From an uncultured cyanobacterium (lineage in GTDB: Bacteria; Cyanobacteriota; Cyanobacteriia; Cyanobacteriales; CAWUOF01): 64,000 nt of DNA. Positions 29,007-31,848 of the stretch are shown here, one piece after another. The notes under the pieces were generated by a model. That model did no database searches, was not told the origin of the DNA, and saw nothing but the letters and a program-made list of their open reading frames with translations. The first letter of the stretch is position 1. Every line of letters begins with the position of its first letter. The stretch is from contig CAVUSO010000001.1 in NCBI GenBank assembly GCA_963744145.1, forward strand, positions 5,696,001-5,760,000, written 5' to 3'. Made by a program: the position numbers and the translations under genes.

Positions 29007-29151
29007 CCCCGCACAAGTTGACAAAGCTTTTGCACTGGCGAGTTACCGTTACTCTACAGACCCTTTTTGAGGTGGATCTGGTAGGAGTCGAACCTACAAT
29101 TCCCGCTGTTCAAGCGGATTGTGTGTAAGCTTTATCTGTCAGGGTGCGGGG
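29007..29151 (-). ncRNA. Circularly permuted tRNA-like RNA closed by a long terminal stem (YrlA/Y-RNA-like)
   Basis: Minus-strand order: 5' stem, hairpin UCCGC-UUGAACA-GCGGG, T arm GUAGG-UUCGACU-CCUAC, acceptor 3' CAGAUCC, loop ACCUCAAAAA, acceptor 5' GGGUCUG, D arm GAGU-AACGGUA-ACUC, 3' stem; ends pair CCCCGCAC/GUGCGGGG, UGACA/UGUCA, AAAGCUU/AAGCUUU. Confidence 0.75.
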
Positions 29152-29165
29152 AAAAATTATTACCT

Positions 29166-29289
29166 TAGACCTCTTGCAAAAGTCATGTTGATCAATTTAC
29201 TGGACAGGCAAGATGCCTGTCCCACAACCAAAAAAAACTCTTGTGGGACAGGCATCTTGCCTGTCCTAGTTATTTTTGCAAGAAGTCTA
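29166..29289. mobile_element. MITE with ~16-bp terminal inverted repeats, inserted in the tRNA array
   Basis: TAGACCTCTTGCAAAA ... TTTTGCAAGAAGTCTA; internal GGACAGGCAAGATGCCTGTCCCACAA / TTGTGGGACAGGCATCTTGCCTGTCC inverted pair. Confidence 0.85.
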
Positions 29290-29312
29290 TTCCAATAGTG
29301 AAAGAAAAATAG

Positions 29313-29395
29313 AGGAAGATGGAGGAATCGAACCCCTACAGAAACCCGTACCCTGGTTTTCAAGACCAGTCGCTGTCCATTCAGCGGCATCTTCC
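29313..29395 (-). tRNA. tRNA-Ser(TGA)
   Basis: Acceptor GGAAGAT/ATCTTCC, anticodon arm CTGGT-CTTGAAA-ACCAG, long variable arm, GGTTCGATTCC. Confidence 0.88.
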
Positions 29396-29402
29396 CTTGA
29401 GG

Positions 29403-29478
29403 GGTGTCTGACGGGACTCAAACCCGCTATTAACTAGCTTCACAGACTAGCGTCTCGATCGCTTCGACTTCAAACACC
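29403..29478 (-). tRNA. tRNA-His(GTG)
   Basis: G-1:C73, anticodon arm CTAGT-CTGTGAA-GCTAG; T loop TTTGAGT. Confidence 0.85.
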
Positions 29479-29483
29479 ATCAG

Positions 29484-29556
29484 TGGATCTGGCGAGGGTT
29501 GAACTCGCAACCTCCTGTTTGCAAGACAGGCATTCTCCCATTAGAACTACAGACCC
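29484..29556 (-). tRNA. tRNA-Ala(TGC)
   Basis: Acceptor GGGTCTG/CAGATCC with G3-U70, A73; CCTGT-CTTGCAA-ACAGG. Confidence 0.92.
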
Positions 29557-29565
29557 AAACCAAGA

Positions 29566-29639
29566 CGGGAATGGTAGGAATTGAACCCACAACATCCGAG
29601 GTAGAAACTCGGCGCTCTATCCGATTGAGCTACATTCCC
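29566..29639 (-). tRNA. tRNA-Arg(TCT)
   Basis: GGGAATG/CATTCCC, CCGAG-TTTCTAC-CTCGG. Confidence 0.9.
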
Positions 29640-29660
29640 ATCAACAATTGTGAAAATTTT

Positions 29661-29910
29661 TCAGTTCAGGCGATCGCGTAAGGGCGTGCAAGTTAGCAGA
29701 GCATTTTGCGTTTTCTCAGCTACTAGAGGGACTCCGCCGATGAGTTATTACACACTCTTTCAAGGATGGCTACTTCTAAGCCTACCTATCGGGTTCTTTG
29801 TACTCCCCATTGGCAAACGCGACCCGATATTTGATAGGGTTACTATTCCTCTCGTACTTAGTATGTAAGCTCTATCCTATTAGGGCACGCTGAGGACGCG
29901 ATCGCACTGA
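29661..29910 (-). ncRNA. Putative structured ncRNA mimicking the 23S rRNA factor-binding site (sarcin-ricin loop plus H42-H44 GTPase-associated centre)
   Basis: AGUACGAGAGGA hairpin at 29841-29863; CCGAUAGGUAGGCUUAGAAGUAGCCAUCCUUGAAAGAGUGUGUAAUAACUCAUCGG at 29737-29792; terminal stem GCGAUCGCGU..GCGUGC / GCACGC..ACGCGAUCGC. Confidence 0.8.
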
Positions 29911-29967
29911 TTACCAAACATGATCAAACGAATTTAACACACCTCCTTAAATCAAATTCAATTCACA

Positions 29968-30039
<72 letters not shown>

Positions 30040-30045
30040 TTTAAA

Positions 30046-30116
30046 AGCGGATAACGAGAGTCGAACTCGTACCTAGAATTTGGAAGAATCAGATGCTACC
30101 GCTACACCATATCCGC
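30046..30116 (-). tRNA. tRNA-Gly(TCC), anticodon stem with two U-U mismatches
   Basis: GCGGATA/TATCCGC, U73, TGATT-CTTCCAA-ATTCT. Confidence 0.78.
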
Positions 30117-30139
30117 CGATTAAAATGATCAGATTTGGT

Positions 30140-30985
30140 TTATTTATCTGGCCGAAATCGCCGATCGAACTCTGTAAATATCTTTCTTTCTTCGCTTAGA
30201 TCCAGAACTGAAAATAGGATGCTTTTGAATCTTCCCCAAAACTGTCCTTTTGTTAATAAAAAATCCGCAAACATTTGAGCGACCATTGCCGGATCGTTTC
30301 TGAATACTCCACATCCCCAAGCTCCTAAAACTAAAGCATCACAATGATGGTAAGCAGCTAAACTTAACAACTTAGCACCGCGAACATAGAGAACTTCGCG
30401 AATTTTTCCTTGAGCCGGAGATGGTCTTTTTCTAATTTCACCAGCGTTAGGAGCTGGACTAGTGAAAAAATCCACTTGATGGGGGATTGACAGTAAAGTT
30501 CCATCATCTTTGCGAAAAATTGGACAACTTGGTGAATGAATAATATGATCGGAATATAAAAGTGAGGAAGTAGACCGATGAAAATCATAATATTTAGGAC
30601 ATTTCAATAGACTTTGGTAAAGTCCAGAACTACGTGCTAAACTCTCTTCTTGTGCTTGAGCACCTCTCATAAATCCACCACCAGGGTTTTTAGCAGAAGC
30701 AAAATTGAGAACACCAATTTTGGCAAATTTTTGAGTTTTCGTCATCATTTCTGCTCCGCTCAATGTCGTCTCATTCCTGATGGTAAATTCAGTATTAGTG
30801 AAGGTGGCAGCACTAGCGAGAACTTCGGTTTGGATTTGCTCAAGATCAGCAGGATCGTAACATTTTGTTTGAGCGACACAGAATGCTAAATCTGGCGCTA
30901 TATCCACCCGTTCGCTTTGAGGGGATTGGTAATAACCTGCTGCTAGTATATTGAGAGTATCTTGCGCGATCGCAACTCGCTTCAT
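30140..30985 (-). CDS. TIGR02452/DUF2263 bacterial-type poly(ADP-ribose) glycohydrolase (PARG-like macrodomain)
   Basis: LNFASAKNPGGGF..GAQAQEESLARSS, VLGAWGCGVFRN; start taken at ATG 30985 because the longer ORF overlaps tRNA-Thr. Confidence 0.9.
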   Translation of the reverse strand: MKRVAIAQDTLNILAAGYYQSPQSERVDIAPDLAFCVAQTKCYDPADLEQIQTEVLASAATFTNTEFTIRNETTLSGAEMMTKTQKFAKIGVLNFASAKNPGGGFMRGAQAQEESLARSSGLYQSLLKCPKYYDFHRSTSSLLYSDHIIHSPSCPIFRKDDGTLLSIPHQVDFFTSPAPNAGEIRKRPSPAQGKIREVLYVRGAKLLSLAAYHHCDALVLGAWGCGVFRNDPAMVAQMFADFLLTKGQFWGRFKSILFSVLDLSEERKIFTEFDRRFRPDK

Positions 30986-31027
30986 GTGTTTAAAACTCCT
31001 GATACATATCTCCTTTTTTAAAGTCCA

Positions 31028-31099
31028 AGCAGGAGGCGAGATTTGAACTCGCATAGGCAGTTTACAAGACTGCTGTGTTGCCATTGACACCACACCTGC
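31028..31099 (-). tRNA. tRNA-Thr(TGT)
   Basis: GCAGGTG/CTCCTGC (one mismatch), GCAGT-CTTGTAA-ACTGC. Confidence 0.85.
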
Positions 31100-31107
31100 A
31101 TGATCAA

Positions 31108-31176
31108 ATACCCCTTGGATTTGAACCTTCCTAAACGAGCTGACTAGACTCGTGCGTGACCACTACTCTAGCCCGC
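31108..31176 (-). pseudogene. Degenerate tRNA
   Basis: GGTTCAAATCC T loop and ACGAG/CTCGT anticodon-like stem are present, but the acceptor strands do not pair. Confidence 0.6.
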
Positions 31177-31178
31177 TA

Positions 31179-31260
31179 TGGGTCGAGCTGGATTTGAACC
31201 AGCAAAGCGTTAAGCCGCGGTTTTACAGACCGTCACCTACACCAATAGGTGGGCCGACCC
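31179..31260 (-). tRNA. tRNA-Tyr(GTA)
   Basis: GGGTCGG/TCGACCC, A73, ACGGT-CTGTAAA-ACCGC, long variable arm. Confidence 0.85.
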
Positions 31261-31271
31261 AGAAAAAAACA

Positions 31272-31344
31272 CGGCCCCAACGGGATTTGAACCCGTGTCT
31301 TCTGATCGAAATTCAGAAATCCTTAACCACTAGACGATGGGGCC
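31272..31344 (-). tRNA. tRNA-Glu(TTC)
   Basis: GGCCCCA/TGGGGCC, TCTGA-ATTTCGA-TCAGA. Confidence 0.88.
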
Positions 31345-31347
31345 TTT

Positions 31348-31423
31348 TGGCAAGGGAGTCGAGCTTTGAACTCGAAGTCTTCGGTTTTGGAGACCGATAT
31401 GTTGCCAGTTACACCACTCCCCC
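31348..31423 (-). tRNA. tRNA-Trp(CCA), CCA end encoded
   Basis: TCGGT-CTCCAAA-ACCGA, ends GCCA. Confidence 0.9.
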
Positions 31424-31426
31424 CTA

Positions 31427-31501
31427 TGGTCGCAGCGGTGGGATTTGAACCCACATTTGCTCGGTTATGAGCCGAGGACTTTACCGTTAAGTTACACTGC
31501 A
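31427..31501 (-). tRNA. tRNA with CAT anticodon (Met, or Ile2), CCA end encoded
   Basis: CTCGG-CTCATAA-CCGAG, TGCAGTG/CGCTGCG, ends ACCA. Confidence 0.85.
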
Positions 31502-31538
31502 ATCTCTTTTAACTGTTTTCCCAACCTAATCTAGCTCA

Positions 31539-31611
31539 CGAGGCTGACGGGTTTCGATCCCGCTACCTTCTGTTCGACAGACAGACGCTCTCCCAATTGA
31601 GCTACAGCCCC
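31539..31611 (-). tRNA. tRNA-Asp(GTC)
   Basis: GGGGCTG/CAGCCTC, G73, TCTGT-CTGTCGA-ACAGA; T loop ATCGAAA. Confidence 0.88.
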
Positions 31612-31753
31612 ATTTAGATCAGGTTTACTTTTTGGGAATTTGGACTTGTTGGCGGTCTACCCAATAGGGCATTACCTGGGTCGGTGATTGCTCGCTTTTG
31701 AGTGAAAACCGCCTTTGTCCAAAAGTGTGTGATATGAAGAATTATTTATTTAG

Positions 31754-31765: not shown

Positions 31766-31819
31766 AGTTTCTGGCTAGGGTGAAGCTTTTCGGTTCTTTC
31801 CCTCTCGCCCTATATTTAC

Positions 31820-31848
31820 ATACTACAATCATACTACAAAATTGTCAA
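31820..31848 (-). promoter_or_regulatory. Sigma70 promoter of the tRNA operon overlapped by two ATACTACA operator-like boxes
   Basis: TTGACA-N17-TAGTAT on minus strand; ATACTACA at 31820-31827 and 31831-31838. Confidence 0.8.

Follow-up and report, generated by a model that had tools for sequence, protein, structure and literature searches.

A circularly permuted tRNA-like RNA in a cyanobacterial tRNA array, its carrier-stem family and a divergent Ro60-like candidate partner

The element, its tRNA array and its promoter

The window analysed here, the whole 64,000-nucleotide stretch of DNA from an uncultured cyanobacterium, carries a long tRNA array whose last unit is a tRNA-like element of unusual design (Table 1). 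Read on the minus strand, the element begins with the 5′ strand of a carrier stem, followed by a hairpin of 5 bp with a 7-nt loop, a 4-nt linker, a T arm and the 3′ strand of an acceptor stem; the 10-nt loop ACCUCAAAAA then leads into the acceptor 5′ strand, U8-A9, a 4-bp D arm and the 3′ strand of the carrier. The original prediction had placed the T arm and acceptor 3′ strand ahead of the acceptor 5′ strand and D arm, and this order is upheld on the minus strand. The minimum free energy of this strand is −53.3 kcal/mol (z −4.82), with none of 200 shuffled sequences as stable, and the plus strand folds with z −3.42. The tRNA tertiary residues U8, A14, G18-G19 and A15:U48 are all present. Fold and alignment confirm that the minus-strand element is a genuine small RNA gene, with a full tRNA shape, permuted parts and a conserved handle.

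Table 1. Coordinates of the features at the locus
Feature	Position	Strand	Remarks
Whole RNA gene, a complete tRNA in circularly permuted order borne on the carrier stem of the family	29007..29151	−	From fold and alignment
Carrier stem, 5′ strand	29129..29151	−	P1 29151-29144, conserved internal loop CCUGACA, P2 29136-29129
Carrier stem, 3′ strand	29007..29027	−	P2 29027-29020, conserved AACUU, P1 29014-29007
Anticodon arm, 5 bp and 7-nt loop	29102..29118	−	Anticodon GAA 29111-29109; non-canonical C37
T arm	29081..29097	−	Preceding U48 gives the A15:U48 Levitt pair
Closed acceptor stem	29057..29080	−	3′ strand 29080-29074, A73 29073, 10-nt loop, 5′ strand 29063-29057; G3.U70
U8-A9 and D arm	29040..29056	−	4 Watson-Crick pairs, A14, G18-G19
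Second family member, 213 nt, same carrier stem	29681..29893	−	530 nt from the element
Sarcin-ricin-loop mimic in sister RNA	29861-29847	−	14/15 bases match own 23S
23S GTPase-centre H43-H44 mimic in sister RNA	29792-29737	−	H42-like flanks
Cyanobacterial long tRNA array	29312..31612	−	11 tRNAs above Rfam cut-off and one weak Tyr-like gene; element is the last unit
Array promoter	31819..31848	−	TTGACA −35 box, tandem TGTAGTAT repeats over −10 box (TrcR-type operator)
Probable TrcR repressor gene, 111 aa	32168..32503	+	Leu44 as in TrcR; divergent from the array; assignment probable

A block of nested palindromic repeats (29155-29284), which may affect read-through or processing, lies between the tRNA-Ser gene and the element. 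With this block intervening between the last tRNA and the element, co-transcription of the element with the array is not certain. Inside the array is a TIGR02452/PARG-like gene (30140-31093, minus strand), the true start of which is probably near 30985. Two array tRNA genes seen by Rfam were missed by ARAGORN, a His-like gene at 29403-29477 (minus strand, 41 bits) and the Tyr-like gene at 31179-31261 (minus strand, 41 bits to the Sec model); both are possibly decayed. A second tRNA array, G000:C1:7372729-7374134 (plus strand), shares the promoter repeats of the first and encloses a small ORF; together the two resemble a single L-array split in half.

In the array promoter and in that of a distant Ro60-like operon, described below, TTGACA precedes TGTAGTAT-like repeats in tandem. 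The chromosome contains 27 copies of the repeat; a degenerate operator pattern from the TrcR literature matched neither promoter, and only the TGTAGTAT repeat did. As far as the L-array/TrcR regulon is described in the main texts of PMC8421152 and PMC10272220, the present array resembles it in array type, in its repeats (a TGTAGTAT-type sequence is marked TrcR-like in PMC10272220), in the adjacent probable trcR and in the TIGR02452 gene, which is TrcR-regulated in Anabaena. Since the Anabaena promoters with such repeats are induced by translational stress according to these texts, the array and the Ro60-like operon may well be co-induced. Term searches of the same main texts found no Y RNA or Ro60, and in that of PMC8421152 neither 23S nor sarcin; its supplements may annotate such array units.

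A family of RNAs on one carrier stem

A DNA search of 60 related genomes matched 12, of which 10 held true homologues of the element after inspection; three of the 17 places returned (L014, L015 and L021) proved to be chance matches or ordinary tRNA-Ala. In nine of these 10 genomes the region around the homologue also contains a gene of one protein family, 477-520 aa in length. With motifs of the carrier stem we scanned the homologue regions, the locus in the element's own genome and, out of 165 GTDB loci of the gene for the 477-aa protein, the best 80, mostly from Nostoc and Microcoleus. This gave 383 elements, 360 of them distinct: 124 normal-order D-anticodon-T bodies, 60 permuted tRNAs, 57 short hairpins, 34 mimics of the sarcin-ricin loop (SRL) plus GTPase centre, 33 helix-69 mimics, 29 partial T-arm forms and 23 others. 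The cargo thus differs while the handle stays constant. In the element's own genome the scan found four members, as against one hit in the shuffled chromosome: the element, the 213-nt sister and two ahead of the 477-aa gene at C1:3136654. Placement at the end of an array is not unique to this element, because other cyanobacterial arrays hold members too: in G128 one lies at the 3′ end of the array, and in G174 and G032 they sit amid the Val and Arg genes. A search of the plasmid collection did not find the element, and Rfam returned no family for the carrier stem.

To the unfitted alignment of the permuted class we admitted 45 of the 58 members of at most 155 nt, omitting near-duplicates and one without a D arm. 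In it, 91.8% of cells are paired, compared with 34-51% in slid controls. Of the 33 pairs, 21 have changed on both sides, and in the terminal helix six of nine have done so. The claim that the two RNA ends pair as a long bulged helix is thereby sustained, in agreement with the fold z-score. Between the two covarying helices of the stem lies an internal loop, CCYRAC opposite RACUU, which is near-invariant on both strands, in part an effect of how members were selected, because the scan itself relied on these motifs. The UGAC/GUCA helix that the original prediction had likened to a Ro-binding stem was not borne out, as those bases sit within this internal loop. The same prediction had named, as a finding that would overturn it, two tandem tRNAs whose outer halves were lost, with no conserved terminal helix. 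This comparison was run, and the reading of the element as such a functionless, decayed relic is rejected because the terminal helix covaries; the end-of-array position and the acceptor stem shared with the array tRNA-Ala would suit a relic, but the compensatory changes, the non-tRNA cargo on the same handle and T and D arms unlike those of tRNA-Ala leave it with next to no probability.

The hairpin of 5 bp and 7 nt that had been noted is indeed present; it is an anticodon arm, however, and not a variable arm, for the same stem and Y32-U33 loop recur in permuted relatives. A hairpin of this form lies 5′ of the T arm at tRNA spacing in 14 of the 60 permuted members, 13 of which, the element included, have Y32-U33. 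Nine of the 13 have in addition a purine at position 37, where the element has C, and nine different anticodons occur among them; other permuted members have shortened hairpins at this place. Since the hairpin is the anticodon arm, with anticodon GAA, the opening of the tRNA falls at the hinge between D and anticodon arms, positions 26 and 27, and not within the anticodon loop as it does in YrlA. Permuted members with the hairpin are complete cloverleaves opened at 26/27. The Levitt pair is retained in 57 of the 60. When rearranged to tRNA order the element is called by ARAGORN with a score of 119.7, which is weak evidence alone because 37 of the 60 members are likewise called and many of these lack a true anticodon arm.

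The acceptor stem GGGUCUG/CAGAUCC-A had been predicted to be identical to that of the array tRNA-Ala at 29484-29556 (G3-U70, A73), and so it is; only one of the 63 tRNAs of the genome shares it. The CC said to follow A73 occurs in the element, whereas the tRNA-Ala gene has CUG. Outside the acceptor, the element is no closer to tRNA-Ala than to unrelated tRNAs (alignment score 40 versus 38.5), and its T and D arms do not match. G3.U70 and A73 are determinants for AlaRS. Across the family, the acceptor has 7 bp in 59 of 60 permuted members, a class for which at least six acceptor pairs were required, and G1-C72 also occurs in 59. G3.U70 is found in nine of the 60, A73 in 22 and CC after N73 in three; all nine G3.U70 members have A73, and among distinct stems the proportions are 7/7 against 10/30 for the others (p 0.002, although kin are not independent). 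Alanine identity cannot define the family because only nine of 60 permuted members have it, and a minority of the permuted class looks, from sequence, chargeable with alanine. The proposal of an alanylatable two-piece RNA thus suits the element itself (7-bp stem, G1-C72, G3.U70, A73) and fails as a family trait. Cleavage of permuted members by RNase P is plausible, by analogy with the Mycobacterium smegmatis YrlA with a 7-bp stem, which RNase P cuts and to which CCA is added, but would not be the defining trait of the family.

The sister RNA carries cargo of another kind. Compared with the GTPase centre of the genome's own 23S rRNA it matches at 39 of 47 bases (E 1e-9), and Rfam puts 29737-29792 on LSU positions 1093-1148 (E 6e-13). 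The SRL and GTPase-centre parts stand in reversed order relative to rRNA, where the two sites are about 1,550 nt apart. In 24 aligned copies of this class 15 of 39 pairs covary, taking the RNAalifold structure minus two small helices. Many of the 34 distinct copies have their own TrcR-type repeat just upstream; a TGTAGTAT-like repeat lies 22-26 nt upstream in 21 of 31 plus-strand SRL mimics. In the literature searches, no RNA came up that naturally mimics the ribosomal GTPase centre on its own. A further class, of 180-210 nt, mimics 23S helix 69-71 (L063:4180-4365, L024:7996-8184 and 31 others); in many copies the strands of helix 69 appear to be swapped in order, as in a permuted rRNA fragment. 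This class was absent from the own-genome scan.

A divergent Ro60-like protein

The gene at C1:3136654, 2.6 Mb from the element, encodes the 477-aa protein. Scans with Pfam and NCBIfam gave nothing above cut-off; the TROVE/Rsr models PF05731, PF25045 and NF041674 did not match, and VWA_2 appeared only below threshold. A profile of 86 homologues matches the human, Xenopus, phiLo and Deinococcus Ro60 structures (E 9e-17 to 6e-8), and hhalign of the protein to the genome's own Rsr gave 95%. The predicted model has a pLDDT of 89.5. In Foldseek, all listed rows with E < 1e-8 are Ro60/Rsr chains, with TM 0.55-0.69 over most of the length, far ahead of vWA-only matches, and the MIDAS residues D300, S302, S304 and D386 are invariant. 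The protein is thus predicted to have the Ro60 fold, a HEAT-repeat ring with a vWA domain. Two Anabaena genes considered as counterparts, alr0857 and alr3301, were set aside since their lengths (390 and 834 nt) do not fit.

The operon of this gene spans G000:C1:3136007-3141650 (L022:5007-10654) and comprises a TrcR-type promoter, a 66-aa Gly-ending protein, two family RNAs, the divergent Ro60 and, onward, KptA, an AAA ATPase, an uncharacterized 278-aa protein and ThiF/E1. At the 80 loci the neighbours include the 66-aa protein (70), the 278-aa protein (53), ThiF/E1 (50), an uncharacterized 241-aa protein (44) and L7/L12 paralogues (14). The 66-aa protein has the beta-grasp order of elements at TM ~0.5 with no E < 0.4, so that a ubiquitin-like fold is only suggested; an Atlas search with the 278-aa protein gave no result. 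The L7/L12 paralogues, together with a putatively EF-Ts-like ORF, are located within or next to RNA clusters (L023:4269-4745, L025:3843-4502, L027, L028).

Among the best 80 of the 165 loci of the protein, all 80 have at least one family RNA upstream on the same strand; 151 elements are upstream, 29 downstream and none antisense, and the TGTAGTAT repeat is on the sense strand at 71 loci versus two antisense. The linkage to a Ro60-fold gene expected of a Y-RNA-type RNA is thus seen for the family, and for the array copy only in trans. Of 141 genomes of the phylum, 13 give a full-length RNA match with E no higher than 5e-10. Precisely these 13 also encode the protein, though six of them belong to one genus and the RNA model (R1) was trained mostly on elements beside this gene. 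Canonical Rsr occurs in 19 of the 141 genomes, four of them among the 13, so that nine of the 13 lack an Rsr match; of the 15 that have Rsr but not the divergent protein, none gave a strong RNA match. In one exception, G083, an element lies in an array (E 5e-7) but no match to the protein was found. Outside cyanobacteria, the stem also accompanies homologues of the protein in a myxococcotal genome, in a viral contig from IMG/VR (43% identity) and in phage LR756511, of 595 kb (48%). This range rests on few loci, because the protein was found in only one of 201 genomes of the phylum of L052, and metagenome scans yielded zero and one loci. Phage LR756511.1 (L125:5600-15150) has the whole module: the motif scan detected at least six RNAs of the stem family there and inspection by eye several more, and ThiF and an ORF with a putative JAB-like motif are also present; the Rfam matches listed for the phage cluster include no Y_RNA.

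The original prediction had seen no Ro60 or rsr gene, which is true of the window, but three Ro60-related genes lie elsewhere in the genome: the divergent one and two Rsr-like genes, the nearest Rsr being about 0.5 Mb from the element. From the linkage and co-occurrence, it is likely that the element is the RNA partner of the 477-aa protein. RNAs are also found ahead of canonical Rsr genes (G000:C1:5215570-5215760 and 7521800-7522100, minus strand; L115:1150-1440). They have apparently normal tRNA order with a Ro motif replacing the anticodon arm, a design that differs from the stem family.

Relation to known systems and possible roles

In the accounts of Chen et al. 2014 (PMC4201824) and bioRxiv 10.1101/312249, YrlA resembles the element in having a T arm, closed acceptor and D arm on a terminal stem, and resembles the family in its tRNA tertiary residues and its clusters upstream of a Ro60-type gene; hairpin-only sisters recall YrlB/Yrn2. 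As described there, however, YrlA has the motif GNCGAAN0-1G and a Ro-binding stem in place of the anticodon loop, and lies nearly always within 4 kb of a TROVE/Rsr gene (the cyanobacterial rows in PMC4201824 are Rsr proteins of 531-534 aa). The stem family instead conserves both internal-loop strands; the motif occurs in none of 60 permuted members and two of 360 overall, and the element and 12 others of the 60 permuted members keep an anticodon arm. The family also differs from YrlA in its partner, a divergent Ro60 outside PF05731/NF041674, in its 23S-mimicking sisters and in copies in tRNA arrays far from the protein. Rfam YrlA (RF02553) scores 23.6 bits on the element against a cut-off of 69, over model positions 29-81 of 114 (the tRNA core only), and at best 39.7 in 12 related loci. 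The Y RNA proposal therefore holds as regards the conserved terminal stem, the tRNA mimicry and the linkage to a Ro60-fold protein, and does not hold for a canonical YrlA. That the element is an ordinary YrlA bound by one of the genome's two canonical Rsr proteins would account for the T-acceptor-D order, the weak YrlA match and the presence of those genes; yet most RNA-bearing genomes lack Rsr, genomes with Rsr only lack strong RNA matches, and the canonical Rsr genes have their own upstream tRNA-like RNAs with a different motif, which makes it very improbable. The best reading of the sequences is an undescribed subfamily of Y-RNA-type non-coding RNAs, a new variant on the Y-RNA/Ro60 theme outside YrlA; literature searches gave no description of the RNA family or of Ro60-linked rRNA mimics, and an earlier mention of the protein clade in reviews is possible.

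Other systems share single features. Two-piece tmRNA (RF04321, RF01851) likewise places the T arm and acceptor 3′ strand before the 5′ strand and has G3.U70 and A73, but the element has real D and anticodon arms, no evident tag reading frame and an alanine identity that its family does not conserve. Permuted tmRNA models give weak local matches of 19-21 bits (21.3 against a cut-off of 47) on the T/acceptor part only, and the genome encodes a one-piece tmRNA of its own. In algae and archaea, permuted tRNA genes (Soma 2014, PMC3978253) also encode a complete tRNA with the 3′ part first; the junctions described there are 20/21, 37/38, 50/51 and 59/60 with BHB motifs, whereas the bacterial element is opened at 26/27 and closed by a conserved stem of the protein-binding type. 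A D/anticodon junction, sought among the algal cases, is absent from those described. The Ro60 of Thermus phage phiLo (PMC12135203; PDB 9KOP, 9L5Y) is, like the 477-aa protein, a divergent Ro60 with RNAs (Yrl1/Yrl2) upstream, and is the best single-sequence PDB match of that protein (E 0.09; by profile, E 9e-12). It differs in being about 15% identical and in RNAs that carry a CGAA motif, with no tRNA-like domain mentioned in the passages on them.

Taken as a whole, the likely explanation is that the element is a Y-RNA-type RNA with a handle for a divergent Ro60, in a family that may display decoys of translation RNAs under stress. The conserved internal loop would be the putative handle bound by the Ro60 ring, while the far end would display a full L-shaped tRNA whose anticodon loop is intact and whose acceptor end is closed; sister RNAs would present other tRNAs, the SRL and GTPase centre, or helix 69 from the same handle. 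Array and operon would be co-induced under translational stress and the RNP assembled in trans. RNases and other attackers of tRNAs and rRNA might then be drawn to these RNAs as to a decoy or bait, the cut RNA or the attacker being brought to the Ro60 ring and the co-encoded KptA, ThiF/E1 and ubiquitin-like protein. The SRL, the GTPase centre, helix 69 and anticodon loops are, we take it, common targets of ribotoxins, factors and antibiotics, and for that reason a decoy or bait is favoured, although we regard the case for this specific role as evenly balanced.

Alternatively, the RNA could be a tether through which the Ro60-like ring recruits PNPase (as in RYPER), tRNA-handling enzymes or ribosomes, with the rRNA-like sisters recruiting L11, L10-L7/L12 and elongation factors. 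Tethering is the established role of Y RNAs and was reported for phage Ro60 with PNPase, and the H42-like flanks of the GTPase-centre mimic and the L7/L12 paralogues would suit it. Anticodons and acceptor identities nonetheless vary freely (nine anticodons in 13 permuted and 20 in 73 normal-order members), so that a panel of baits fits better than one docking surface, and we consider a tether rather unlikely; the tether and decoy roles are not exclusive of each other. A charged two-piece tRNA appears improbable. By analogy, RNase P and 3′ trimming would open the acceptor loop, CCA would be added and AlaRS would place Ala on a GAA anticodon, the product acting on the ribosome or EF-Tu while held by the carrier stem. 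The near-constant 7-bp acceptor with G1-C72, the A73 of every G3.U70 member, the M. smegmatis precedent and the presence of all four arms speak for such a molecule, but G3.U70 and CC are rare, some acceptor loops have only 3-4 nt, anticodon and acceptor identities are mismatched, C37 and a bulky helix at the 26/27 hinge are unfavourable, and cleavage may happen without being the function.

Returning to the decoy reading, a broader form of it may be put forward tentatively, its probability falling slightly short of even: a second, so far unrecognised Ro60 lineage, occurring in cyanobacteria, giant phages and at least one myxococcotal genome, would use one handle to show small replicas of parts of the translation machinery, namely whole tRNAs of either order with varied anticodons, the SRL fused to the GTPase centre, and a permuted helix-69 region. 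Induced by stress, these would act as decoys for ribotoxins and translation inhibitors, or as sensors of them, and would be coupled to enzymes of RNA repair and of ubiquitin-like tagging, with the element as a hinge-permuted, possibly alanylatable member. The surprising part is the family context, the rRNA mimics above all. A family that keeps its handle and swaps its cargo addresses the purpose of the tRNA-like module in bacterial Y RNAs and opens it to direct test, since a distinct interactor is predicted by each cargo. The Ro60 clade, with more than 3,000 related proteins, is overlooked by current TROVE and Rsr models. Cyanobacterial tRNA arrays gain non-tRNA genes, and some tRNA calls beside these genes are not tRNAs; one family RNA of the Ro60-like operon is itself miscalled as a tRNA by ARAGORN.
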